The notes beneath the pieces are model-generated. The model was given only the letters and a program-made list of their open reading frames with translations, was not told where the DNA came from and searched no databases. A stretch of DNA of 64,000 bases from Escherichia phage vB_EcoM_SA35RD. Position 1 is the first letter of the stretch. Each line of letters begins with the position of its first letter. The DNA lies in sequence record OL960577.1. One strand, written 5' to 3'. The translations under genes were made by a program, and so were the position numbers. This document shows, in pieces, positions 2,520 through 46,840 of the stretch.

Positions 2520-3620
2520 TTACGCTGTGAAGATTTTATCCCACATCGCAACAACTGCATCTCGGTTATACTTCTTCCATACTGCTTCAGCACGTTTAAC
2601 TCGAGCTTCGTATGTGTCAGTGAATTCTAATACAGCTTTTGTGTAAAGCGCAACTACTTCTTTCTTAGGAGTAGAGGAATCAATTTCTACACGCACAGTA
2701 TCTGGGTCATATTCGAATGTCGCGTGCGGATAATCCTTAAAAACTAACTGAATCACAGGGACACCTTTAGAGATGGCTTCAATAGAACTATTCTCTACCG
2801 TACCCGTGTCAGGACACGTATTGATAAGTGCTTTAGCTGTTTTAAGACGTTCCATGATTTCACTGTGTGGAGCATCAATAATAACAGGATATTTAGCTGG
2901 TGGTGCCCATTTACTAGGACAGTATCCTGCACCATTTTCGCCTAGTGCTTTAATCGCTTCAAGAGCAACATCAGTACGACGCATTTTAGTGTCATAACGT
3001 TGTGCACTAATAATCAGATCAGTCGCCGGAAGAACTTCAGGTTTCTCATTCAAACAAATAACCGGATAATCTTCGGCTTCAAACAACGGATTTGCTCGCC
3101 AATAATCATAATCAATTTTGTCAGTCAGACCTGAAGTCATATAACAATATTTGCGTTCAAATTCACGGAAGGCTTTAGTAGGAGCATAACTCTTACCACC
3201 GTTCTTATGAATTTGAATAGTCTGGTCCCAAATTTGAACAATGCCACGAGATACCGGTTCAAATGGTGTTGCCATAAAATTCTTATGAACTTTAGAGAGA
3301 CCTGCGTCTTTAATTGCCTGAACGGTTAGTTTGGTCGGTTCCATAGTAACAACAAAATCGTATTCATGGATGCCGGCTAGTTCAACAATCTTACGAGCCA
3401 TAGTATAACTCATACCTAGACTGAATTTAGTCAGATGACCAACAGGATGATGATTAACCTTCCAGTCACCAAACGTGTCATTATCAAAGCCGATATAATC
3501 AATATCAGCACCGATGGACACAAGATATTTCAATACATTTAAATGTACTGCTTCAAGACCACCTTGTACACGTTCTGGGTTAAATGGGACTGCGCGAGAT
3601 GGGATAAACATAACTTTCAT
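2520..3620 (-). CDS. GT-B fold glycosyltransferase, candidate DNA hmC arabinosyltransferase
   Basis: 366 aa; N-terminal MKVMFIPS...GGLE and C-terminal GTVENSSIEAISKGVPVI resemble GT1/GT4 motifs; occupies the gene 60/mobA slot of T4. Confidence 0.55.
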   Translation of the reverse strand: MKVMFIPSRAVPFNPERVQGGLEAVHLNVLKYLVSIGADIDYIGFDNDTFGDWKVNHHPVGHLTKFSLGMSYTMARKIVELAGIHEYDFVVTMEPTKLTVQAIKDAGLSKVHKNFMATPFEPVSRGIVQIWDQTIQIHKNGGKSYAPTKAFREFERKYCYMTSGLTDKIDYDYWRANPLFEAEDYPVICLNEKPEVLPATDLIISAQRYDTKMRRTDVALEAIKALGENGAGYCPSKWAPPAKYPVIIDAPHSEIMERLKTAKALINTCPDTGTVENSSIEAISKGVPVIQLVFKDYPHATFEYDPDTVRVEIDSSTPKKEVVALYTKAVLEFTDTYEARVKRAEAVWKKYNRDAVVAMWDKIFTA

Positions 3621-15240: not shown

Positions 15241-15762
15241 TTAATACCCGTTGTCCTGGCGTTCGAAGTTATGTTTATTTTTCAAATAATACAGCTTAAA
15301 GATTTCTTCAGCAGAAAGACCCAGACCTTGGAACATGTTCAGAACGAAATGCAGAATATCAATCATTTCGAATTTAATTTCGAGCTGGTCTTCAGGAGAT
15401 AGTTCATCGATACGACGATTACGATATTCAGCATGTTGGGCCTTCCACGGTTTCCATACAGCAGATGCATCTTTTTCACCATTGCTCATACCACCAAGTG
15501 AAGTCAACAGTTCACGGAATTCATCATCAATATAATCTTTCTGATTACGCAGCCAATCAACAACATCACCAGCAGTAGCCAATTCATCAGGATGTTTGTT
15601 ATGTTCAGGCTTGTCATTTGCCAGACGAACCTGTAAAGATTTCTGCATATCAAGCATTACCTGCAGTGGGTCTTTATCTTCGTGAATCAGAGCATTAAAA
15701 TAAGCTTCTTCTGCTTTATCAACACCAGAAATAAGTTGTGAACATTCGTTAAAGTGTGCCAT
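15241..15762 (-). CDS. 56: dCTP pyrophosphatase gp56 (MazG-like)
   Basis: Start at MAHFNEC after AAGGAAAA SD; size and synteny. Confidence 0.65.
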   Translation of the reverse strand: MAHFNECSQLISGVDKAEEAYFNALIHEDKDPLQVMLDMQKSLQVRLANDKPEHNKHPDELATAGDVVDWLRNQKDYIDDEFRELLTSLGGMSNGEKDASAVWKPWKAQHAEYRNRRIDELSPEDQLEIKFEMIDILHFVLNMFQGLGLSAEEIFKLYYLKNKHNFERQDNGY

Positions 15763-15851
15763 TATTTTTCCTTTCAATTCAGTAATAAGTGAGTTAATTC
15801 TAACATTAATTTTATAAAGCGTAATAAATAATAGGTAACTAAGGAGATATT

Positions 15852-18802: not shown

Positions 18803-19051
18803 TTATTCTTTTTCGCGAATAATAATTACTTGTTGAGGCTGCTGAGCCGATTTCTTTTCGGCAACGAAAGACCAAATTAAAGTTCCAATCCAACCAATCA
18901 TCGTCCAGTTAAAGAGTAAAGATACAAAGAAGATTGCTGTTGTGCTTTTTGTGCCACGAATAAGTGCGATTACCCAAGGCAACATGTAAATGATGATTGA
19001 ACCAATACCTGCGATTAAAACTGCTACTGAACTAGCTACGAATAATTCCAT
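18803..19051 (-). CDS. hypothetical membrane protein
   Basis: 82 aa, two hydrophobic segments. Confidence 0.45.
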   Translation of the reverse strand: MELFVASSVAVLIAGIGSIIIYMLPWVIALIRGTKSTTAIFFVSLLFNWTMIGWIGTLIWSFVAEKKSAQQPQQVIIIREKE

Positions 19052-23530: not shown

Positions 23531-23630
23531 TGTATTTTTCCATAGGCATCATTATATTTTACTCATGTTTAAAAGATAAGACGATTATATACTAAGGGTT
23601 ATACAGCATTTAAAAACTTTAAACAGGCTC

Positions 23631-24179
23631 TTAACGAGCCCATTTGATAATTTCTGTAATCAAATTATTACGTTCGCTTGCATTAAATCCTATAACTTTG
23701 TTAGCACCATCATGATTAAGTAATTGATACGTTTGGATTTCGTTATGAATTGCAAACTCTTCAAAATATGAAATGACTGTATTAAAACCGAATGAAGACA
23801 AAGTAATAAGGTCGTCTTCAAAACTTTCAGTCATTTCGTTACGTGTTAAAATAATTGTGAACACATCATGGTTTTGGCAAAGACGAACATAATCCTGTTC
23901 ATAAACGTCAAGAACCGAGTCCGCATCTTGTCGAATACGTCCATAAACCCAGTTACTAATATATCCACGGTCTAACAGATAAATCTTAGTAGGGTCTAAA
24001 TAATTCAACATCGTTTCGAAACAGCCAACTTCATTTCGAGACTTAACATCGAAACGTCCATCAACTGTTCGTTTAGGGAAATCAATCTTTACATATCTTT
24101 CACTAATTTCCATTATGTCATTAATGAAAGTTGTTTTACCAGCATTATCCGGGCCATCTACTAAAATAATTTTAGCCAT
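23631..24179 (-). CDS. P-loop kinase, thymidylate/dNMP kinase-like
   Basis: 182 aa; Walker A VDGPDNAGKTT and LLDRGYISNWVYG (DR-Y-like motif). Confidence 0.5.
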   Translation of the reverse strand: MAKIILVDGPDNAGKTTFINDIMEISERYVKIDFPKRTVDGRFDVKSRNEVGCFETMLNYLDPTKIYLLDRGYISNWVYGRIRQDADSVLDVYEQDYVRLCQNHDVFTIILTRNEMTESFEDDLITLSSFGFNTVISYFEEFAIHNEIQTYQLLNHDGANKVIGFNASERNNLITEIIKWAR

Positions 24180-24180
24180 T

Positions 24181-25080
24181 TTATTCCTCGATTACGACAT
24201 CTTCGTATTTAGGTATATTATACGGTGAAGAAATTAAAGCATTAAAGTAGATGAACTCACCAAGACCTGGATGGAATACTTCTTCAGGATTTTCGAAATA
24301 TTGAATCTTCGGACGTCCTTTAAGAATTTGATAGTACTCAGTTTTAGTTGGATTAAAAATTCGAATCAGCGCTTCTTCAGGATACTTATTTCTGTCGAAA
24401 CTATTATTTGGATCAGTTATATAAAGCGGTTGACCTAATTGAATTGCGCATTCAACCACTTGTTCAAAACGATAGCATGGGTCACTAATTCGAAATGGAT
24501 GAAAAATACCATCTAGATGAATAGGAGCCAAATCACCTACAAGACGCTGCATGACGGAAGGACGTATAACTTTCTGCGTTACGATAATCTTATTACCATC
24601 TGCACCTGCGTTAACCAGCACTTCTTTTTGACGTTCATTCAACACAGTAGTTTGAAGTGAACGATTAACAGACAACATGTCGGTTTTTAAGAATTCATCA
24701 ATATAAAAACGTGGTTTATTAGGGTCTGCAGTGATATTGAAATTGAATTCTACATCAAAAGCGCCGTCATATCCAGTGATATCTGTGATTAGAAAATCAC
24801 AATCATAATAAGCAATTAATGAATCAACCACAAATTCATTTTCAGACCAAAAATATTTACGAGTGTTATACGCGTTATCTTTATACCATAATGGAACAAA
24901 CTTAAATTCTGGGAAAAGACGTTCACATTCTTTAATATCAGATGCATTACGTGGATATGTAATCACATCACCCGGATTAGCACGGTGCAAATGAAGTTGG
25001 AAGTTGCCATCCTTAAGGATAGCATACTGTCCAGTTTCATAAGACCGCATACTCAAGATAGGTACGCGGAAAATAGCCAT
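24181..25080 (-). CDS. hypothetical protein in modification locus
   Basis: 299 aa ORF, no recognised motif. Confidence 0.45.
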   Translation of the reverse strand: MAIFRVPILSMRSYETGQYAILKDGNFQLHLHRANPGDVITYPRNASDIKECERLFPEFKFVPLWYKDNAYNTRKYFWSENEFVVDSLIAYYDCDFLITDITGYDGAFDVEFNFNITADPNKPRFYIDEFLKTDMLSVNRSLQTTVLNERQKEVLVNAGADGNKIIVTQKVIRPSVMQRLVGDLAPIHLDGIFHPFRISDPCYRFEQVVECAIQLGQPLYITDPNNSFDRNKYPEEALIRIFNPTKTEYYQILKGRPKIQYFENPEEVFHPGLGEFIYFNALISSPYNIPKYEDVVIEE

Positions 25081-25796
25081 TAGTCAAGGAATCCTTTAAC
25101 ATAATCAAAATCACGTTCAAACACATGGGCACTTACCATGGTATGAGTATAATCACCAACTTCTACACCACATTCGTTAGCGATATAATGAAGTAATTTT
25201 CCTTGGAGATAAAAATCCAACTGCATAACAACAGCACAGTTCTGGGAACGCATATGACAGTGGGTATAAAGCTTACCGTCACGAATATAATAAGTCACTG
25301 AGTCAGTACATGGATATTCAAGCGTTTCGTCCGAATCAAGCAAAGCCTGATCAGAACTTTCTAGAATTTGGAACACAACTCTTCGAGAGTTAGGTTTCTC
25401 TTTAAGTTCTTTTAGAAGAGCTGGTAATTGGGCCGCAATGCGAGGACCATAGAAAGTGTTGAAGTTCGCCGGCAAAGCGTCTGATTTAGGTTTAGAAATA
25501 AATTTAGCGACATTAGGATATGCCTTAAACGCTTCTTCTGCATCAGTACCACCAGAAATCATAAACTTCCAGAAGTCTTCGGCATATTCATAAGAGATGC
25601 GGTTAATACGTGGGTCGGTCATTTTGAATGATGATGGATTGTCAACAACTACTGTCATGGACCCGATTTCATTACAACGTCCAATACGAGAATCAGTTAC
25701 GAATTCAGGATTTTCTAAAATTTCACGATTGACTGCTTTAAATGCGGCTTGAAAATCTGCGGCTTTGATATATTTCATTGTGTTATGTTTTCCCAT
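25080..25796 (-). CDS. 42: dCMP hydroxymethylase gp42 (thymidylate synthase fold)
   Basis: 238 aa; EYPCTD segment and size; T4 synteny (42 upstream of 43). Confidence 0.7.
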   Translation of the reverse strand: MGKHNTMKYIKAADFQAAFKAVNREILENPEFVTDSRIGRCNEIGSMTVVVDNPSSFKMTDPRINRISYEYAEDFWKFMISGGTDAEEAFKAYPNVAKFISKPKSDALPANFNTFYGPRIAAQLPALLKELKEKPNSRRVVFQILESSDQALLDSDETLEYPCTDSVTYYIRDGKLYTHCHMRSQNCAVVMQLDFYLQGKLLHYIANECGVEVGDYTHTMVSAHVFERDFDYVKGFLD

Positions 25797-25838
25797 GTTT
25801 ACCTCAATACAATTTATTATATACTCAATTCGTAAAGC

Positions 25839-26078
25839 TTATTTGAATTTCTTGGCAATGTTGATATAACGTAAAGCTTCAGAATCTATACTTCCAAGAA
25901 CACTATGAAGGAATGCATCAGTGTAGTATTCCAATTGAACAGGTTCTTTAATCACTTTAGCCGCTTTGGTTTCAAACAGGCCCATAAGGGCCTTTTTAAG
26001 AATTTGTTCGTTAGTGTTCAGTTTTATAGTCAAAATCTCTTCATTAAGTTGGTGGTTAAAAGTTTTTCTAGAAATCAT
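25839..26078 (-). CDS. hypothetical protein
   Basis: 79 aa ORF. Confidence 0.35.
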   Translation of the reverse strand: MISRKTFNHQLNEEILTIKLNTNEQILKKALMGLFETKAAKVIKEPVQLEYYTDAFLHSVLGSIDSEALRYINIAKKFK

Positions 26079-27244
26079 TCCGGGTACCTCAAAGCGTCAT
26101 CAGAGTTAGTTATATCAATAATAGATATAGAGTTTTCTGATAACCCATTTTTAGATAACTGACGTTTATAATATCTTTCACAATATGTACACGTCGTCCC
26201 GCAGATTTCATTAGCACAATCGAAATCTGGATGTCTGAACCACCTTTTTTCTAAAAAACCGTCTAACAATGAGGTTTCAATATTTACTGTATGTGAAAAC
26301 TCAGTCTCATTTTCAAGAGTGAAAATAGTCTCTAAAGGCTTCCACAGTTCTAACAAATTACCTTCAAACTTTTCAGAAGCGTATGCTTCAAGAACTTTCA
26401 AAATGTAGTCTGTGCTACCTGTACGTCCTGAAACTTTGAATTGAGTGATACCAATATCATTATAAAGTTTCAAATCTTGAGGACGAACAAAACGAGTTCT
26501 CAACCAGTTAAATGGGTCTGTATCACGAGCTTTAATGCAGTGTTGCATTGGATACCCGTTTAAGGATTTAGCATCATCAGCTGTAACATCAGTACTATGG
26601 AAAATATAGCAAGAGTCACGATAGCTACAATGTGTTGTATACCCTTTACCAGCATTAGAACAGAACTCATTTACAAGAACTTCAAATATTATATTGTTCT
26701 TATTGCAAAACTCTGCTGCACGCTTCAGGAAAGAAACTGAACGGTTCTTATGAATTCCACAGCAGACCTTTTTGATATTGTATTGGTCATGTAAGTATTT
26801 TATTTGAGTTACAGCATCGACATGTAGAATTGTTGAAACTTCAATCTCAATGTCTTTATTGACTTCACGAACAATTTCCATAACAACAGGGTTAGCGATA
26901 GTAATACGCCATACGCCTATTGACCAAAGATACTGAACATAATCCTGAATAGCTTTCTTCTTCCACTCAACTAGTTCTCTTTTTGAACCAGGATTTATCG
27001 TGTTGAGTGTATAGTTAAAGCAAATACCTAATTCGTTACAACGTTTAACGTAATCTTCTAACATCTTTTTGTCAACGTCAGGAAGCCTAAAATCAGGTCT
27101 GGCTGCTACAAAAGCCATTTCTCTTGTAGAGCCGTATACTTCATTTATCAAGCTATTAGGATAAGTTTTATTGAGCTCTACGATTTTATCAAGAAGAGCT
27201 AAATCAAAATTCGTTCCGATTTTAAAAGTATTCATTTTTTGCAT
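26075..27244 (-). CDS. Cys-rich protein, possible Fe-S enzyme (U32-like?)
   Basis: 389 aa; Cys clusters EFCSNAGKGYTTHCSYRDSC and CANEICGTTCTYC (CxxxCxxC); family unresolved. Confidence 0.45.
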   Translation of the reverse strand: MQKMNTFKIGTNFDLALLDKIVELNKTYPNSLINEVYGSTREMAFVAARPDFRLPDVDKKMLEDYVKRCNELGICFNYTLNTINPGSKRELVEWKKKAIQDYVQYLWSIGVWRITIANPVVMEIVREVNKDIEIEVSTILHVDAVTQIKYLHDQYNIKKVCCGIHKNRSVSFLKRAAEFCNKNNIIFEVLVNEFCSNAGKGYTTHCSYRDSCYIFHSTDVTADDAKSLNGYPMQHCIKARDTDPFNWLRTRFVRPQDLKLYNDIGITQFKVSGRTGSTDYILKVLEAYASEKFEGNLLELWKPLETIFTLENETEFSHTVNIETSLLDGFLEKRWFRHPDFDCANEICGTTCTYCERYYKRQLSKNGLSENSISIIDITNSDDALRYPE

Positions 27245-27294
27245 CTCGCGTTAATTGATGCGATGGGTTTTTTTTGCAGGTCTTACTTAAATTA

Positions 27295-27696
27295 TTATAG
27301 ATTCGGTTTATACGATTTAAATGTTTCGAATTCGCCTTTATTCATAAGAGCTTTGAATTCGTCAGGACGCATAGCTTTGTCGTCGATAATCCAATCATAT
27401 ACTGGTTTATGTGTTAGCAAATTATGGTACTTCAAACCAATGTTTTCCAAGTTCTGAATCAGACTTGGGAGAATGTCAATTGCTATACGACCAGGACCTA
27501 CCGACTTCATACCACGAGCAGTGTAAAGCGTTATGGTATGCCCTGCATCATACAGGGCATTAATGGCGGTCACCATTTCGACGTCTGGTTTGAAGTTCAC
27601 ATAATCACGATTGTTATTCCACTCTGTTATACAATCATCGACATCAAAACAAAGATTAAGCATGTTTTCTACACGGTGCATTAGATTCGTTCCCAT
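27295..27696 (-). CDS. HAD-superfamily phosphatase
   Basis: 133 aa; DxD motif in FDVDDCIT near N-terminus. Confidence 0.55.
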   Translation of the reverse strand: MGTNLMHRVENMLNLCFDVDDCITEWNNNRDYVNFKPDVEMVTAINALYDAGHTITLYTARGMKSVGPGRIAIDILPSLIQNLENIGLKYHNLLTHKPVYDWIIDDKAMRPDEFKALMNKGEFETFKSYKPNL

Positions 27697-29366
27697 TGAT
27701 GAGTGATATCGCCACCGATTGGACGATAGGAAACACCAGTTTCTTTATCAGTTAGTACCCATTTACCAGGATTTTTTGTAATCAGAGTAGCCGTTACAGG
27801 TTCTGCTACGTCATAACTAATAGAGCCATCTTGAAGTACACGGCCCGTGTTACGTAATTGCTTAGTCAGAAGTTCCATACCTTTATAATATGCGGCTACC
27901 GCTTTAAGTGGATTATTCTTGAAATAACCACCTAATGCAATCCAGATAATTGCTACTGCCAAATGATGATACTCGTTAAACGAACTCATCTTTCCATATT
28001 TGTAAACTAATGGATTGATGTTAATAGTCACATTACAAGTTGTTTCATCAATAATAAACTGGCCCCAGGTCGGATTAGCGTTGAATTCATCATAACCTGA
28101 AACAGCATAAAGCACTTTAGCTTCATCATACAATTTTGGTCCGTAAATCTTGGTTTCACCAAAATATCCACGAGGGTCGATAAACTTGACTTCGCCGTTA
28201 TCAGTAATCATAGTATTACTGAAGTTCGGATCACCGTGAATAACAGAGTACTGTCCCTGAGAACGGTTATGATAACGAATAAGATGTTCTAAAGCTTGTT
28301 TCAACATTGGCTTCAGACGTCCAATCTTAGTGTAGTTCACGTGTGTGATTTTACCAAATGAATCAATCAATGGCTGAATGCTTTCACAACGATCAATAAC
28401 TTTCGTATAGAACTCTTTAGTGAAATCACGGCGAACAGTTTCAGGACTTACAAAATAAGTGTCTGTGCTGAATTTCAGTGCATCTAAAATTGCATCAACA
28501 ATTTGTGGACGAGCAAGACTTGATTTGGATTTAATATATTCAAATGCCGGCTTACCTTTAATACGTTCCATTTCAAAGTTATTTTCATTAACAGAAACTA
28601 ACTGAGGGACTGAATCTGATTTCACTTTCAAATACCATGAAATCTCATCTTTCTGAAGAGCTCGACCTTGTTCGGTTAACGCGAATTTAGTTACAGTTTC
28701 TTCGCCAATTTCAACTGCATTAAAACTACGATTAAGTTCACGAACTTCATGAGCTTTTTCAAGTTTAGGCATATCGCCAAGGTCGATGATATTCATAAGC
28801 TCTGATTTATTGAATGCGCCGCTGTAAAGGAATTCTACGAAATCACGTCCTTTGCAGTATTCATGAATTTCCTCATCAGTAGAACCCATATAGAATTCCC
28901 AGTCTTTGAACTGATAAATTCCTACAACATTACCACCTGTTGAACCTACGTTAGTGATATTTTCACCGTCGAAATTATATCGACATTCGTCACCCTTAAC
29001 ATAGATTGCGTTAACATTCCAAGACCATGAACCAAAATCAGGAATAATATCACACCAGTTAACAATTACATTATGGCCGTCTAAATCTTTGTGTAATTTA
29101 GCAAGAGCATAAGCAGAACCATACGCTTCGTCAACTGTACGAATAGTCACATTGAACCCTTCTTGCTCACAATAAGCTCGAACAGTTTCAGCAAATTTTG
29201 AATGAACTACTACAATAATTTCATCTGCGCCAAGGTCAGAATAAATTGTATACAAATTGCTCAGAATAGTGTCTTGTTTATAGTTCACAAGAACTTTTGG
29301 AATATGATGCGTTATTGGATACAAACGAGTTGCCAGTCCAGCACCAAGAATAACAGCTTTTTTCAT
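27681..29366 (-). CDS. bifunctional sugar-1-phosphate nucleotidyltransferase / sugar kinase
   Basis: 561 aa; N-terminal GAGLATRLYPITHHIPK (G-x-G-T-R...PK); C-terminal HGDPNFSNTM...IDPRG (APH/choline-kinase-like). Confidence 0.6.
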   Translation of the reverse strand: MKKAVILGAGLATRLYPITHHIPKVLVNYKQDTILSNLYTIYSDLGADEIIVVVHSKFAETVRAYCEQEGFNVTIRTVDEAYGSAYALAKLHKDLDGHNVIVNWCDIIPDFGSWSWNVNAIYVKGDECRYNFDGENITNVGSTGGNVVGIYQFKDWEFYMGSTDEEIHEYCKGRDFVEFLYSGAFNKSELMNIIDLGDMPKLEKAHEVRELNRSFNAVEIGEETVTKFALTEQGRALQKDEISWYLKVKSDSVPQLVSVNENNFEMERIKGKPAFEYIKSKSSLARPQIVDAILDALKFSTDTYFVSPETVRRDFTKEFYTKVIDRCESIQPLIDSFGKITHVNYTKIGRLKPMLKQALEHLIRYHNRSQGQYSVIHGDPNFSNTMITDNGEVKFIDPRGYFGETKIYGPKLYDEAKVLYAVSGYDEFNANPTWGQFIIDETTCNVTININPLVYKYGKMSSFNEYHHLAVAIIWIALGGYFKNNPLKAVAAYYKGMELLTKQLRNTGRVLQDGSISYDVAEPVTATLITKNPGKWVLTDKETGVSYRPIGGDITHQWERI

Positions 29367-29407
29367 GTTGAAGTCCTCATTGGTAAGTAGATGTATTGTA
29401 CACTATT

Positions 29408-29551
29408 CTAGTTAAAGCATTCATACTTTGCCTGTAGACCAATCATAATCCATCCAATTACAAGTGTTGGAATCATTACTGGAGCCGTTAAGCTCCAGTA
29501 GATAGTCATGACAAGCATTAATAGTAAAAGTCCTATTGTTATTGCTTTCAT
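29408..29551 (-). CDS. small hydrophobic peptide translationally coupled to isomerase gene
   Basis: Hand translation MKAITIGLLLLMLVMTIYWSLTAPVMIPTLVIGWIMIGLQAKYECFN; ATGA overlap with upstream stop. Confidence 0.3.
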   Translation of the reverse strand: MKAITIGLLLLMLVMTIYWSLTAPVMIPTLVIGWIMIGLQAKYECFN

Positions 29552-30183
29552 TGTTCGCCTCGTAACATGGCACCTAGTGCACCACCAGGGTGGAACTTAA
29601 GGAAGTCATTAGAGGTAAATCCGCGTTCAGACGAAAGGTTGATAGCAAACGTATCGATAAGCGCTAACAACAATGTGGTGGACATTGTCGGAGCTAAAGA
29701 GTTCTCGTCAACTTCTACCGCGATACCGGTACAGAACGTATAATCAAAAAGAGCTTCGTATTCTTGTGGAATGTCAGGGTTACAATGTAACAGAATCTGT
29801 TTAACCTGAGGACGAATCATACGAAGATGTTTAGCAACACCTATCATTTCTTCAGTCTTACCAGAACGACTAATATGAATCAACACATCATTAGGCGCAA
29901 TGAATCCTGCATCACCGTGAGAATAATGCCCGGTGTTCAAGTACATACTCGGGATACCGAGTGAAGCAAATGTCTCAGAAGCTTTAGTTGCAATATTAGC
30001 ATTCTTACCAACACCTGTAATAATTACTCGGCTTTCATAATTACTAAGTCCTGGGCGTCGAAGAGTTTCTAGAATAGCATTATAACGAGCAGGGTTTTGA
30101 CTAATTACTTTGGCCATAGCGGCCAAAGAAGAAGCTTGTTTTATGATTGCGTCAATAGCGATAGTAATAGGAGTAGTTTTCAT
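29548..30183 (-). CDS. SIS-domain sugar-phosphate isomerase, arabinose-5-phosphate isomerase-like
   Basis: 211 aa; GVGKNANIATKASETFASLGIPS...SHGD resembles KdsD/GutQ SIS domain. Confidence 0.6.
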   Translation of the reverse strand: MKTTPITIAIDAIIKQASSLAAMAKVISQNPARYNAILETLRRPGLSNYESRVIITGVGKNANIATKASETFASLGIPSMYLNTGHYSHGDAGFIAPNDVLIHISRSGKTEEMIGVAKHLRMIRPQVKQILLHCNPDIPQEYEALFDYTFCTGIAVEVDENSLAPTMSTTLLLALIDTFAINLSSERGFTSNDFLKFHPGGALGAMLRGEQ

Positions 30184-44555: not shown

Positions 44556-45026
44556 TTAATCATGTTTCCACACCCCATCGGTATTTGACCAAAGTCGCTG
44601 ATTATCTGATCCTCGCCACAGCTTTTTGGTCGGAAGATTTTTCTCATACTTCCCATCAATAATAACATCAACATATTTAAGCATTTCTAGTTGTTTAATA
44701 TCTTCAAACTTATATCCTGTCCACAACCAAATGCTTTTACTGGGATAAAGATTTTTTACTGTTTGAACAATGCAATGAATAACATCTCGATTATCAGGAT
44801 AGAGAGGGTCTCCTCCAGTTATAGTTAATCCTTCTATATAATCATTATTCAAACATTCAATTAATTGTTCTAGTGTCTCTCCAGTGAATGGAACACCGTT
44901 TCTAGCATTCCATGTTGATTTATTATAACATCCTTCACATTTATGCAAACAACCTGTAACGAAAAGAACGACCCTGCAACCAGGGCCATTCACAAAATCG
45001 CAAGGATAAAATCTATCATAATTCAT
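44556..45026 (-). CDS. nrdG: anaerobic ribonucleotide reductase activating protein (radical SAM)
   Basis: 156 aa; CLHKCEGCYN cluster; directly downstream of nrdD. Confidence 0.8.
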   Translation of the reverse strand: MNYDRFYPCDFVNGPGCRVVLFVTGCLHKCEGCYNKSTWNARNGVPFTGETLEQLIECLNNDYIEGLTITGGDPLYPDNRDVIHCIVQTVKNLYPSKSIWLWTGYKFEDIKQLEMLKYVDVIIDGKYEKNLPTKKLWRGSDNQRLWSNTDGVWKHD

Positions 45027-46840
45027 TGGTGTTTAACCCTATGCATGATTTCTTTATTTTTGCCAAGATTAAATCCGCGTTCGTTCGGATTTCCCAAATA
45101 ACCACAAGTTCTTCTTATTGTGTTCATCTTTTTAGGGTCAGTTTCTCCGCAAACTGAACAAACAAATCCGTTTTCAGTAGGAGTCATTTCATGGGTACTT
45201 CCACATGTAAAACATTTATCTACTGGCATATTAACACCAAAATAATCTAAATGTTGTGCGGCATAATCCCATACAGCCTCAAGACCTTTTAAGTTATTTT
45301 TCATATCAGGAAGTTCAACATAAGAAATGTGTCCGCCAGTCGCAATGAAATGATATGGGGCTTCGCGAGAAATCTTTTCAAACGGAGTGATATTTTCTTC
45401 TACTGAAACATGGAAACTATTAGTGTACCAGCCTTTATCAGTAACATCCTTTACACTTCCATATTTTTCAGTATCAAGTTTACAGAAGCGATAACAAAGG
45501 TTTTCAGCAGGTGTAGAATACAAACTAAAAGCAAAACCGGTTCTTTCAGTCCACTGTTTAAGATGAGCATTCATTTTAGTTAAAATTTCTTGTCCAATAT
45601 CACGACCGACAAGAATATTCAATTCGTGAATACCAATGTATCCTAGGGACACTGAACTTCTACCGTTTTTAAATAACTCAATTATATCGTCATCAGGTTT
45701 AAGACGAACCCCGAATGCACCTTCTTGGTAAAGAATAGGAGCAACAGTCGCTTTAACTCCTTTTAAGGAACTAATTCTACACATCAAAGCTTCAAAACAC
45801 AAATCCATTCGTTCATTGAACAATTCGGCAAATTTCTGTTCATTGAATTGTGTTCCAATATAAGAATCTAACGCAATGCGAGGAAGATTCAGTGTTACAA
45901 CACCAAGATTATTGCGTCCATCAAGAATTTCATTACCAGTCGAATCTTTCCATACACTCAAGAAACTACGGCAACCCATTGGAGAAACTGGAACTGAAGA
46001 ACCAGTAATAGCTTTATTATTCTTAACCGAAATAATGTCAGGATACATTCTTTTGCTTGCACATTCTAACGCAAGTTGTTTAATATCATAGTTCGGATCA
46101 TCTTTATAAAGATTAACACCTTCTTCAACGAACATAACAAGCTTAGGGAAAATAGGAGTTATTCCATCACGACCAAGGCCTTTAATGCGGTTTTTAAGAA
46201 TTGCTTTCTGAATCATTCGTTCAGTCCAGTCGGTTCCTGTACCAAATGTAATTGTTACAAAAGGAGTCTGTCCGTTTGAACTAAAGAGAGTATTTACTTC
46301 ATATTCATAAGCTTGGAATGCATCGTATACGTCTTTTTCTGTTTTAGATTGAGCATAATTCAACGCATCAGCGATTTGCCATTTTTCTGCATCTTCAACA
46401 TGTTTAGCGTATGTACGTTTAACATAAGGAGAAAGAACTTTATCGACATTTGCAAATGTAGTTCCGCCATACTGATGTGAAGCAACTTGTGCAGTAATTT
46501 GTGCCATAATTGCAGTAGCAACACCAATCGATTTAGGCGTTTCAATTTGAGCATTGCCTAATTTAAATCCATTCTCAAGCATCCCCTTTAAATCGACTAA
46601 ACAGCAATTGGTAAACGGAAGAGCAGGAGAATAATCAATATCATGCATGTGGATAATTCCACTTTCATGCGCATTCATAATAAAAGACGGGACCGTATTT
46701 TTGGCAATGTGCTTAGACACAATACCAGCCATAAGGTCCCGTTGAGTTGGAAAAACACGAGAATCTTTATTAGCATTCTCGTTTAAAAGGTCTTTATTAG
46801 TTTTATGAATTAATCCTTCAATTTCTTTTTCAATTTTCAT
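45023..46840 (-). CDS. nrdD: anaerobic ribonucleoside-triphosphate reductase
   Basis: 605 aa, uninterrupted; C-terminal zinc ribbon CFTCGSTHE...CSVCG and glycyl radical region RRTCGYLG. Confidence 0.85.
   Translation of the reverse strand: MKIEKEIEGLIHKTNKDLLNENANKDSRVFPTQRDLMAGIVSKHIAKNTVPSFIMNAHESGIIHMHDIDYSPALPFTNCCLVDLKGMLENGFKLGNAQIETPKSIGVATAIMAQITAQVASHQYGGTTFANVDKVLSPYVKRTYAKHVEDAEKWQIADALNYAQSKTEKDVYDAFQAYEYEVNTLFSSNGQTPFVTITFGTGTDWTERMIQKAILKNRIKGLGRDGITPIFPKLVMFVEEGVNLYKDDPNYDIKQLALECASKRMYPDIISVKNNKAITGSSVPVSPMGCRSFLSVWKDSTGNEILDGRNNLGVVTLNLPRIALDSYIGTQFNEQKFAELFNERMDLCFEALMCRISSLKGVKATVAPILYQEGAFGVRLKPDDDIIELFKNGRSSVSLGYIGIHELNILVGRDIGQEILTKMNAHLKQWTERTGFAFSLYSTPAENLCYRFCKLDTEKYGSVKDVTDKGWYTNSFHVSVEENITPFEKISREAPYHFIATGGHISYVELPDMKNNLKGLEAVWDYAAQHLDYFGVNMPVDKCFTCGSTHEMTPTENGFVCSVCGETDPKKMNTIRRTCGYLGNPNERGFNLGKNKEIMHRVKHQ

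Follow-up and report, generated by a model that had tools for sequence, protein, structure and literature searches.

Escherichia phage vB_EcoM_SA35RD (sequence record OL960577.1) was examined over 64,000 nucleotides, the whole stretch referred to below as the window, in which positions 23,631 to 30,183 hold a cluster of cytosine-modification genes lying between uvsX and the DNA polymerase gene. The cluster very probably encodes an RB69-type pathway that exchanges every cytosine of the phage DNA for mono- and di-arabinosylated 5-hydroxycytosine (5hoC), and one of its products, a U32-family protein, may provide a second, O2-independent route to the hydroxylated base. An earlier sequence-only reading of this DNA had named most of the open reading frames (ORFs), and a check of the frames found all of those present on the minus strand at the coordinates that follow. 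The cluster ORFs are closely packed, with stop and start codons that overlap or abut (gaps of −16, −4, −1, and +1 nucleotides). The principal genes, including two that lie outside the cluster, are:

23631–24179, minus strand: dTMP-kinase-like P-loop nucleotide kinase (RB69 gp45), 182 amino acids (aa), with a GPDNAGKT P-loop and assigned through an ortholog profile
24181–25080, minus strand: GT-B-fold glycosyltransferase (RB69 gp47:46), 299 aa, predicted first arabinosyltransferase from its fold and its location at the position of T4 beta-gt
25080–25796, minus strand: predicted thymidylate synthase (TS)-superfamily 5-hydroxy-dCMP synthase (RB69 gp48 ortholog), 238 aa, dependent on flavin mononucleotide (FMN) and O2, with a match to Pfam Thymidylat_synt (2.4e-15); not a dCMP hydroxymethylase
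26075–27244, minus strand: U32-family protein of Fe-S (iron-sulfur) type (RB69 gp50), 389 aa, with a match to Pfam Peptidase_U32; putative prephenate-dependent, O2-independent cytosine C5 hydroxylase
27295–27696, minus strand: HAD phosphatase (RB69 gp51, AfhF-like), 133-aa ORF with a match to NCBIfam TIGR01689 (2e-13), predicted to convert arabinose-1,5-bisphosphate to arabinose-1-phosphate
27681–29366, minus strand: predicted bifunctional nucleotidyltransferase (NTase) and kinase (RB69 gp53:52, HY126 AfhE-like), 561 aa, assigned from domain matches and a kinase motif
29548–30183, minus strand: SIS-only predicted arabinose-5-phosphate isomerase (RB69 gp55 ortholog), 211 aa, with a match to Pfam SIS (4.8e-10)
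15241–15777, minus strand: gp56-type dCTPase, predicted to remove dCTP and supply dCMP, with a match to Pfam dUTPase_2 (1.1e-6); the collinear PhAPEC2 gene is annotated as similar to T4 gp56
2520–3620, minus strand: predicted second arabinosyltransferase (RB69 ORF003c/gp3 ortholog), beyond the segment considered in the sequence-only reading and 98.6% identical to PhAPEC2 gp003

The flanking genes (DNA polymerase, uvsX, gene 41, and others) are of the T4-like phage type, and the window is a Mosigvirus sequence. It is collinear with PhAPEC2 from base 1, with 96.8% identity over 34 kb. Matches to the 6.7-kb region were found in 232 phage records, of which 150 match it from end to end at 95 to 99% identity. 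ATK47 is the closest (98.5%); the best matches listed are all RB69-like coliphages, and Mosigvirus taxonomy was read for AlbertHofmann, PhAPEC2, and RB69. Compared with the RB69 reference, the cluster shows 97.2% DNA identity over 6.7 kb, and its products are correspondingly close to gp45 (98.9%), gp47 and gp46 (98–99%), gp48 (99.2%), gp49 (92.4%), gp50 (99.7%), gp51 (97.7%, over 128 aa), gp53 and gp52 (98–99%), and gp55 (98.1%). The GC content of the cluster resembles that of its flanks, and its base composition carries no island signature. The RB69 RefSeq record splits both the transferase (gp46/gp47) and the NTase–kinase (gp52/gp53), each of which is a single intact ORF here and in all other relatives examined; the intact 299-aa and 561-aa genes support the published view that the splits in the RB69 record are sequencing errors. 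The arabinosyl-5-hydroxycytosine system of this region has already been published (Thomas 2018; Mahler 2025; He 2026; Lee/Weigele 2026). The sequence-only reading had proposed a nucleotide-sugar module that arabinosylates a modified cytosine as in RB69, and the protein identities of 98 to 99.7% (92% for gp49) agree with it; the chemistry it proposed is updated below.

In that reading, synthesis of the sugar donor began from ribulose-5-phosphate with an arabinose-5-phosphate isomerase, and the matches of the SIS protein to KpsF/GutQ and KdsD bear this out. The NCBIfam scores (KpsF/GutQ TIGR00393, 111 bits; KdsD, 106 bits) fall below the family cut-offs (111 versus 203.7) because the C-terminal tandem CBS domains are absent; the match to TIGR00393 spans profile positions 2 to 153 of 268. 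The protein is best described as an SIS-only relative of KpsF/GutQ/KdsD, not a full-length member, and as a predicted arabinose-5-phosphate isomerase; the conversion of ribulose-5-phosphate to arabinose-5-phosphate is also the role predicted in PMC13326640. The HAD protein matches TIGR01689, a capsule-biosynthesis phosphatase model, with an E value of 2e-13 that is below the model's cut-off, and has no match in Pfam. Its true start is probably at 27681, giving 128 aa as annotated in RB69 and PhAPEC2. At the N terminus of the 561-aa protein, residues 3 to 99 match NTP_transferase (8.4e-10); the protein also matches the structure 1jyk in the Protein Data Bank (PDB; 2e-5). Its C-terminal part has weak matches to APH, fructosamine-kinase, and EcKL families (residues 344–409) and a Brenner motif, HGDPNFSN, at position 377, and resembles eukaryotic-type kinases. 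The families assigned earlier to these three proteins thus hold in profile searches of Pfam and NCBIfam.

The activities of the HY126 enzymes AfhE and AfhF were described by He et al. (Nat Chem Biol 2026). As that work is cited in PMC13326640, the bifunctional enzyme converts arabinose-5-phosphate to the 1,5-bisphosphate, the HAD enzyme takes off the 5-phosphate, and the NTase domain produces UDP-arabinofuranose (UDP-Araf); by the same account, homologs of AfhE and AfhF are all that is required to make UDP-Araf from arabinose-5-phosphate. In SA35RD, the SIS isomerase would first convert ribulose-5-phosphate to arabinose-5-phosphate, which the C-terminal kinase domain of the 561-aa protein is predicted to phosphorylate at C1. 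The resulting arabinose-1,5-bisphosphate would be converted by the HAD phosphatase to arabinose-1-phosphate, from which the N-terminal domain of the 561-aa protein is predicted to make UDP-Araf. The sequence-only reading had placed dephosphorylation before anomeric phosphorylation; as far as PMC13326640 relates the biochemistry, the order is the reverse, with the kinase acting first, then 5-dephosphorylation, then formation of UDP-Araf.

A larger revision concerns the acceptor base. The sequence-only reading took the gene at 25080–25796 to be gene 42, whose product would form hydroxymethyl-dCMP, with arabinose-5-phosphate dephosphorylated, re-phosphorylated at C1, and activated to give arabinosyl-5-hydroxymethylcytosine (ara-hmC). 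Alignment of the TS homolog with E. coli ThyA and T4 gp42 showed that the catalytic Cys146 is kept, with Glu at ThyA L143 and Asp at N177 (QLDFY), and that Asn occupies the position of ThyA D169 (RSQN; T4 gp42 has RSND, with Asp). Asp at ThyA position 177 confers dCMP specificity. The dCMP-specifying Asp and the acidic residue at 143 are shared with T4 gp42 and favor the hmC version, which was also proposed for RB69 in 2018 from high-performance anion-exchange chromatography and matrix-assisted laser desorption/ionization data (PMC6024577). The protein is, however, only 25% identical to T4 gp42 and 98% identical to the proteins in PDB entries 9iqc, 9ir2, and 9iqu, and the D169N change at which it differs from gp42 has been proposed as the signature of 5-hydroxy-dCMP synthases (PMC13326640). 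RB69 gp48 makes 5-hydroxy-dCMP in vivo with oxygen derived from 18O2, and it binds FMN, loosely, and needs a reductant (PMC13326640). Mass spectrometry (MS) and nuclear magnetic resonance (NMR) analyses of RB69 DNA identified 5-hydroxycytosine bearing one or two arabinoses, the sugar being joined to the C5 oxygen through an ether bond (PMC13326640; Lee, Weigele, Peters et al., Nucleic Acids Research 2026). The same modified bases were found in another Mosigvirus, NP, in a study that called the hmC assignment erroneous (PMC13390438). The sugar chemistry of the hmC version is also at odds with PMC13326640, where, in its account of the enzymes, the kinase acts on arabinose-5-phosphate and the phosphatase on the 1,5-bisphosphate. 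The ara-hmC version is already refuted for RB69, and for SA35RD it is extremely unlikely; the predicted acceptor base, judged from the sequence of the synthase, is 5-hydroxycytosine and not hydroxymethylcytosine.

The base branch would start with the dCTPase, the activity listed for RB69 gp28 (PMC13326640), which would yield dCMP. The TS homolog, with FMN and O2, would hydroxylate C5 to give 5-hydroxy-dCMP, kinases would raise this to the 5-hydroxy triphosphate, and the polymerase would incorporate it. Steps of this branch have been demonstrated for RB69 gp48 and gp159, which are 99% identical to proteins of the window (PMC13326640).

For the transfer of arabinose, the candidate enzymes differ from those of T4. 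The sequence-only reading had stated that no alpha- or beta-glucosyltransferase is present, and T4 alpha-gt and beta-gt queries found no homolog in the whole 64-kb window (best tblastn E > 2). The Pfam model T4-Gluco-transf, which matches T4 beta-gt, matched no transferase of the window, and homology of the transferases to T4 beta-gt was rejected. The 299-aa protein, previously left without an assignment, has no match by sequence in Pfam, NCBIfam, or PDB. Its AlphaFold2 model (predicted local distance difference test score [pLDDT] of 93.9) was matched by Foldseek to MshA (3c4q), sucrose-phosphate synthase (6kih), 8x3q, and UDP-GlcNAc 2-epimerases at query TM-scores (TMq) of 0.5 to 0.62, all of them UDP-sugar enzymes. 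The model thus has a GT-B glycosyltransferase fold, in a gene that occupies the T4 beta-gt position. A second transferase is encoded at 2520–3620, where the PhAPEC2 counterpart, gp003, is annotated as similar to RB69 ORF003c; its product is 40 to 42% identical to the two extra glycosyltransferases of the cluster in the Acinetobacter phage fHyAci03, which lie at the position of DLP3 gp76/gp77. DLP3 gp76 and gp77 jointly add arabinose from UDP-Araf, and for RB69, predicted folds and synteny led to gp46:47 being assigned as the first arabinosyltransferase and gp3 as the second (PMC13326640). On the same grounds, the GT-B enzyme at 24181–25080 would place the first arabinose on the 5-hydroxyl, and the ORF003c-type enzyme at 2520–3620 would add the second.

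The P-loop protein gave no significant match when searched alone. A profile of 13 orthologs matched thymidylate kinases (TMKs; 1tmk, 7e-7), YorR (2axp, 2e-6), and 2v54, aligning with TMKs and YorR over most of their length, and this upholds the earlier description of the protein as dTMP-kinase-like. No arabinosylation cluster examined lacks the kinase, even where a TS homolog is missing. The genes for the TS homolog, the GT-B transferase, and the TMK-like kinase (23631–25796, minus strand) are coupled by a 1-nucleotide overlap and a 1-nucleotide gap.

Two points count against the pathway as assigned: for SA35RD the assignment rests wholly on near-identity to RB69 and HY126, and in PMC13326640 the first arabinosyl transfer was not reconstituted and single glycosyltransferases were inactive on 5hoC-containing DNA. 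That inactivity, the tight gene coupling, and the occurrence of the kinase in every cluster make it conceivable that 5-hydroxy-dCMP is the acceptor of the first arabinose, at the level of the nucleotide and not of DNA, with the P-loop kinase then handling the bulky product.

The protein encoded at 26075–27244 had been described as Cys-rich. It contains 13 Cys and is placed by Pfam in the U32 family (Peptidase_U32, PF01136; 42.2 bits against a cut-off of 22.4, residues 97–289). A sequence search of PDB gave no match. The best PDB fold match of its AlphaFold2 model (pLDDT 91.5) is the U32 protein 5d88, and Foldseek also returned a flavin-dependent methylenetetrahydrofolate reductase (E 3e-6, TMq 0.37). 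In hhalign, a profile of the phage U32 proteins aligned with E. coli RlhA (95.4% probability, E 1.8e-8), with HCSYRDSCYIFH opposite LCVAYSGQCYISH; C206/C212 are paired with RlhA C169/C176, and E188 with E161. MAFFT pairs C195 with C169 and has Gly at C176. The two U32-motif Cys of RlhA, C169 and C176, are essential (PMC5727448). The phage family has more than 1000 homologs, and seven Cys are invariant or at least 90% conserved among 26 aligned members, including three of the C-terminal motif C343-x4-C348-x3-C352-x2-C355. At 389 aa, compared with 653 aa for RlhA, the phage protein lacks the RNA-binding C-terminal extension.

The characterized U32 proteins RlhA, TrhP, and UbiU/UbiV are all linked to O2-independent hydroxylations that require Fe-S clusters and prephenate (PMC5727448, PMC6599085, PMC10990095). 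RlhA converts C to 5-hydroxy-C in 23S rRNA (ho5C2501) in an O2-independent, prephenate-linked manner (PMC5727448). TrhP acts on tRNA to give 5-hydroxyuridine (ho5U34), and TrhO and TrhP represent O2-dependent and prephenate-dependent routes to the same product (PMC6599085). For ubiquinone, prephenate is the oxygen donor used by UbiU/UbiV (PMC10990095). By analogy with these enzymes, the balance tips slightly toward the U32 protein (RB69 gp50) being a prephenate-dependent, O2-independent hydroxylase that makes a 5-hydroxycytosine nucleotide. Using prephenate as hydroxyl donor and Fe-S clusters, it would form a second route to the 5-hydroxy base beside the TS homolog; as the simplest reading we infer a dual system resembling TrhO/TrhP, in which an O2-dependent and a prephenate-dependent enzyme would make the same 5-hydroxypyrimidine. 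In Table 1 of PMC13326640, gp50 is listed only as "sugar or heterocycle reductase," without discussion; the Discussion of that paper cites the work on RlhA and on tRNA ho5U (its refs 65 and 66) as unrelated pyrimidine-hydroxylation pathways, and the U32 membership of gp50 goes unmentioned. A full-text literature search returned no paper tying U32 or chorismate mutase to arabinosyl-5hoC modification, although He 2026 and Mahler 2025 lay outside this search and priority is not proven.

Gene linkage in related phages connects the U32 protein to prephenate. In 56 T4-like phage records a Pfam-verified type II chorismate mutase gene separates U32 from the TS homolog; by organism name, the records cover 13 genera (Klebsiella, Serratia, Yersinia, Enterobacter, Proteus, Erwinia, Providencia, Edwardsiella, Escherichia, Pectobacterium, Morganella, Kosakonia, and Shewanella). 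The mutase gene adjoins the U32 gene or is one small ORF away, and its start often overlaps the U32 stop. In the Shewanella phage Thanatos-2 the two genes are found together at another place in the cluster. Among Kanagawaviruses, KLB31 (Klebsiella; locus L004, 4548–7089) has the pair, whereas IME523 (Enterobacter; locus L073, 6637–7693) is without exactly these two genes, and its HAD stop abuts the TS start. The U32 and chorismate mutase genes move, and are present or absent, as a unit. KLB31 and IME523 also constitute a natural, isogenic-like pair for the presence and absence of U32.

These comparisons bear on the possibility that the U32 protein is a reductase or another enzyme of UDP-arabinose or heterocycle metabolism. 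The label given to gp50 in PMC13326640 implies such a role, as does that in the record of phage Bas47 (MZ501047; "enzyme involved in UDP-arabinose biosynthesis"); the U32 gene is always found among sugar-activation genes, and the predicted TIM barrel resembles methylenetetrahydrofolate reductase (Foldseek E 3e-6). That resemblance is, however, one of a generic barrel (TMq 0.37), and UDP-Araf synthesis, as summarized in PMC13326640, needs only the AfhE and AfhF homologs. The clusters that lack U32 (those of Acinetobacter phages, Dhakavirus, PspYZU05, and IME523) keep the full sugar module, and the U32-less Acinetobacter phage DLP3 makes tri-arabinosyl-5hoC (PMC13326640). A role in sugar metabolism would also leave the recurrent linkage to chorismate mutase and DAHP synthase unexplained, and we regard it as unlikely. 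Under the hydroxylase reading, the relatives' own chorismate mutase, or a DAHP synthase–chorismate mutase fusion, would supply the oxygen donor.

Homologs of the U32 protein at 30 to 58% identity occur in other phage types, which carry DNA polymerase III alpha and are represented by contigs of up to 466 kb. At 7 of the 32 other viral loci, U32 is flanked by DAHP synthase and/or chorismate mutase genes: a fusion of the two in L041, L042, L043, and L054, separate genes for both in L060, chorismate mutase in L044, and DAHP synthase in L018. In L018 (9145–10804), genes for a stand-alone 248-aa DAHP_synth_1 protein and for an NAD-dependent epimerase lie 3′ of U32. The family concerned, PF00793, also covers KDO8P synthase, the substrate of which is arabinose-5-phosphate, so the L018 gene could serve sugar chemistry and not prephenate supply.

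Nine loci outside the T4-like phages (L018, L039, L040, L041, L043, L045, L046, L048, and L062) have homologs of the 299-aa glycosyltransferase, the SIS isomerase, and the NTase–kinase co-directional with U32, and no TS homolog was found within 10 kb in any of them. In these clusters U32 takes the place of the hydroxylase. TMK-like kinase and HAD genes were verified in two, L041 (4618–11083) and L043 (3327–10070), where the order is glycosyltransferase, SIS isomerase, NTase–kinase, TMK-like kinase, DAHP synthase–chorismate mutase fusion, HAD, and U32. For these clusters of uncultured viruses, the predicted product is a glycosylated hydroxypyrimidine formed independently of TS, and U32 would be the sole hydroxylase of some phage lineages. 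Contigs with U32-only clusters include IMG/VR UViG 3300021256_000085, 3300033463_004353, 3300045988_116618, and 3300045988_126789.

The same clusters help to assess whether U32 might instead be an Fe-S electron-transfer partner that delivers reduced flavin to the O2-dependent 5-hydroxy-dCMP synthase. Such a partner would suit a synthase that binds FMN loosely and needs a reductant (PMC13326640), and it would fit the many conserved Cys of U32 and the proximity of the U32 and synthase genes, which are near one another in T4-like phages and adjacent in L055 and L067. Against this, RB69 gp48 and DLP3 gp80 are active in E. coli without gp50 (PMC13326640), and some U32 genes lie in clusters where a 10-kb search found no TS homolog. 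U32 is also absent from all the sampled phages of aerobic hosts, where a flavin partner would be most useful, and electron transfer gives no reason for a link to a prephenate-making enzyme. We consider this role quite unlikely.

In two further settings the neighbors of U32 are different. On a 466-kb contig and a 60-kb contig, U32 lies directly 3′ of a dCMP deaminase gene (L017, 7447–9086; L019 and L020, 7504–9083). UDG-family genes, a gene resembling thymidylate kinase, and a split DNA polymerase III alpha are close by, and the 248- to 254-aa gene downstream in these loci has no family match. This context is a hint that huge phages may use a hydroxylated uracil or cytosine nucleotide. On a 195-kb viral contig (L044, 8415–15877), an ATP-grasp (RimK-like) gene lies on the opposite strand ~440 bp upstream of U32, and genes for a 107-aa chorismate mutase, a 399-aa protein without assignment, an NTase–kinase homolog, a HAD protein, and a 409-aa protein 27% identical to T4 beta-glucosyltransferase follow downstream, co-directional with U32. 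The L044 system may be a variant decorated with a different sugar or with an amino acid.

Such neighborhoods also speak to the view of U32 as a mere passenger in the cluster that hydroxylates host or phage RNA, in the manner of RlhA and TrhP, or acts as a peptidase. The characterized U32 pyrimidine hydroxylases do act on rRNA and tRNA (PMC5727448, PMC6599085), and collagenase/peptidase is the historic name of the family. Yet in at least three unrelated phage types the gene forms part of a DNA-modification operon, joined to it by overlapping stop and start codons, and in the huge-phage contigs it stands beside dCMP deaminase, thymidylate-kinase-like, and UDG genes. The RNA-binding extension of RlhA is missing from the phage protein, and the hydroxylase clades of the family have no established peptidase activity. 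Either function is very unlikely.

The hydroxylase reading also has a counterpart in host range. All 220 phage records with this U32 have hosts in the Enterobacterales or Shewanella. Among the records carrying the TS homolog, U32 is found in 0 of 57 from Acinetobacter phages and 0 of 20 from Rhizobium phages, compared with 26 of 26 from Klebsiella, 7 of 7 from Proteus, and 6 of 6 from Yersinia phages; it is also absent from the Pseudomonas phage PspYZU05, and none of the sampled phages of strict aerobes has it. A strict rule tying U32 to every facultatively anaerobic host was rejected, given that Dhakavirus VR5 and Kanagawavirus IME523 lack the gene; only the converse holds, that it never occurs with strict aerobes. 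Genes for an anaerobic ribonucleotide reductase, NrdD (605 aa), and for NrdG (156 aa), its activase, lie in the window itself at 44556–46840 (minus strand), and the PhAPEC2 record annotates a GrcA-like glycyl-radical cofactor at the position collinear with ~61.3 kb of the window. These genes are consistent with replication in anoxic hosts. Because the synthase requires O2, the phage removes dCTP, and NrdD and NrdG are encoded, an O2-independent route to the base would be needed, and with the U32 enzyme the phage could make its DNA even where anoxia in the host disables the O2-dependent synthase. On this proposal, arabinosylating phages that infect facultative anaerobes would carry two interchangeable hydroxylases, a flavin/O2 enzyme for aerobic hosts and an Fe-S/prephenate enzyme for anoxic ones.

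Several observations weigh against assigning hydroxylase activity to U32. The spacing of the U32-motif Cys is x5 in the phage protein versus x6 in RlhA, and MAFFT and hhalign align the motif differently. E. coli Dhakavirus VR5 and some Kanagawaviruses (IME523) do without U32. By Pfam, this Mosigvirus cluster carries no chorismate mutase of its own, so prephenate would have to come from the host enzymes PheA and TyrA. The search for TS homologs in the U32 loci spanned 10 kb only, the host correlation rests on few independent clades, and U32 hydroxylases have never been reconstituted in vitro (PMC10990095).

Although the ORFs listed in the sequence-only reading are real, two small ones were missed:

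25839–26078, minus strand: 79-aa small protein (RB69 gp49), whose start overlaps the U32 stop and which occupies the slot next to the relatives' chorismate mutase
29408–29551, minus strand: conserved 47-aa hydrophobic small protein (MKAITIGLLLLMLVMTIYWSLTAPVMIPTLVIGWIMIGLQAKYECFN), whose ATG overlaps the isomerase stop (ATGA)

The 79-aa protein has no match in Pfam or NCBIfam. Its homologs in Yersinia phage TG1 (44–45%) and Serratia phage 92A1 (31–32%) are small ORFs located between the U32 and chorismate mutase genes; close homologs are confined to Mosigvirus, many of them shortened to 47 to 58 aa. At 92% identity to RB69, compared with 98 to 99.7% for its neighbors, it is the fastest-evolving gene of the cluster. 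Its interpretation as a diverged chorismate mutase was rejected, since it gave no CM_2 match even at an E value of 10 and its homolog coexists with the mutase in TG1 and 92A1. The N terminus of the 114-aa chorismate mutase of Winklervirus (MRRINHTMNE) resembles that of the 79-aa ORF (KTFNHQLNE here; INHNLNE in 92A1), which suggests that the Winklervirus protein may retain a fusion remnant. An ortholog of the 47-aa ORF in KLB31 (Kanagawavirus) is recorded as having a transmembrane domain, and ORFs of 47 to 48 aa occupy the same position in the clusters of Virsaitis27 (Winklervirus) and TG1 (Tegunavirus); it is a small membrane protein within a cytoplasmic nucleotide-sugar operon.

Matches to promoter and terminator consensus sequences in the cluster are at chance level, with counts equal to those in shuffled sequence, and no regulatory claim is made. 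They include a terminator-like hairpin with a T-run (23621–23645, minus strand) that overlaps the P-loop kinase stop codon where the cluster ends downstream, ahead of uvsX, and a promoter-like site (TTTAAA-16-TATAAT; 27294–27321, minus strand) shortly upstream of the U32 gene. The imm homolog (18806–19051, minus strand) adjoins spackle (sp), ~11 kb away. In T4, imm sits between genes 42 and 43, an interval occupied here by the arabinose genes.

Mosigvirus DNA that carries arabinosyl-5-hydroxycytosine is protected against restriction and against CRISPR nucleases; the modification is in turn a target of type IV systems. O2 is required in the one route to the modified base that has been demonstrated, yet these phages destroy dCTP, have gut bacteria as hosts, and encode an anaerobic ribonucleotide reductase; if the U32 protein is an O2-independent hydroxylase, their replication in the gut would be explained. 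As a U32 hydroxylase with a DNA precursor as substrate, the protein would be the first of its kind, and the relatives' genes would be the first phage-encoded prephenate supply for DNA modification. The U32/prephenate hydroxylases, which are poorly understood, would also gain a nucleotide substrate that is small, soluble, and easy to assay. For the uncultured phages whose clusters have U32 only, hydroxylated, glycosylated pyrimidines would be predicted, and the choice of therapeutic Mosigvirus phages and the conditions of their production would be affected.

Of the known systems, the closest is RB69 gp45–gp55 with gp3, the counterpart of the Afh cluster in E. coli phage HY126: the same genes run in the same order from uvsX to the DNA polymerase gene, with 97.2% DNA and 92 to 99.7% protein identity, and the same second transferase lies next to rIIA. 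The two differ as separate isolates do, and in the 299-aa and 561-aa genes, which are intact here and split by sequencing errors in the RB69 reference. The hmC glucosylation system of T4 (gp42, alpha-gt, beta-gt, gp56, and gp1) occupies the same genomic slot, with a glycosyltransferase gene directly downstream of the TS homolog, and follows the same logic: dCTP is destroyed, a TS-superfamily enzyme modifies C5 of dCMP, and a sugar from a UDP donor is placed on the new hydroxyl. It differs in using a hydroxymethyl group, a folate mechanism, and glucose, where the pathway described here would use a hydroxyl, flavin and O2, and arabinofuranose, and the transferases of the window have no sequence similarity to alpha-gt or beta-gt. 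Arabinofuranose in place of glucose calls for a dedicated nucleotide-sugar pathway. The cluster of Acinetobacter phage DLP3 and Lazarusvirus shares the isomerase, NTase–kinase, HAD protein, TS homolog, glycosyltransferase, and P-loop kinase at 46 to 70% identity; it has two extra transferases beside it, in keeping with tri-arabinosylation, and has no U32, chorismate mutase, or 79-aa ORF.

The E. coli proteins RlhA, TrhP, UbiU, and UbiV share the PF01136 core with the phage U32 protein, which has extra C-terminal Cys, at an identity of only 15 to 22%; the conserved Glu and Cys pair of the U32 motif is matched by hhalign and paired differently by MAFFT. RlhA makes the very change proposed for the phage enzyme, C to 5-hydroxy-C, and all four E. 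coli proteins need prephenate, while the phage U32 genes are linked to prephenate-making genes. The phage proteins nevertheless form a distinct subfamily of ~360 to 390 aa with the C-terminal four-Cys motif, and their presumed substrate is a deoxynucleotide, not RNA or a quinone. For the proposed division of labor, the nearest precedent is the TrhO/TrhP pair of tRNA 5-hydroxyuridine synthesis, an O2-dependent and a prephenate-dependent enzyme proposed to serve life with and without oxygen (PMC6599085). There the O2-dependent partner is a rhodanese; in the phage, where we infer the dual arrangement, it would be a flavin-binding TS homolog, and the product would enter DNA.

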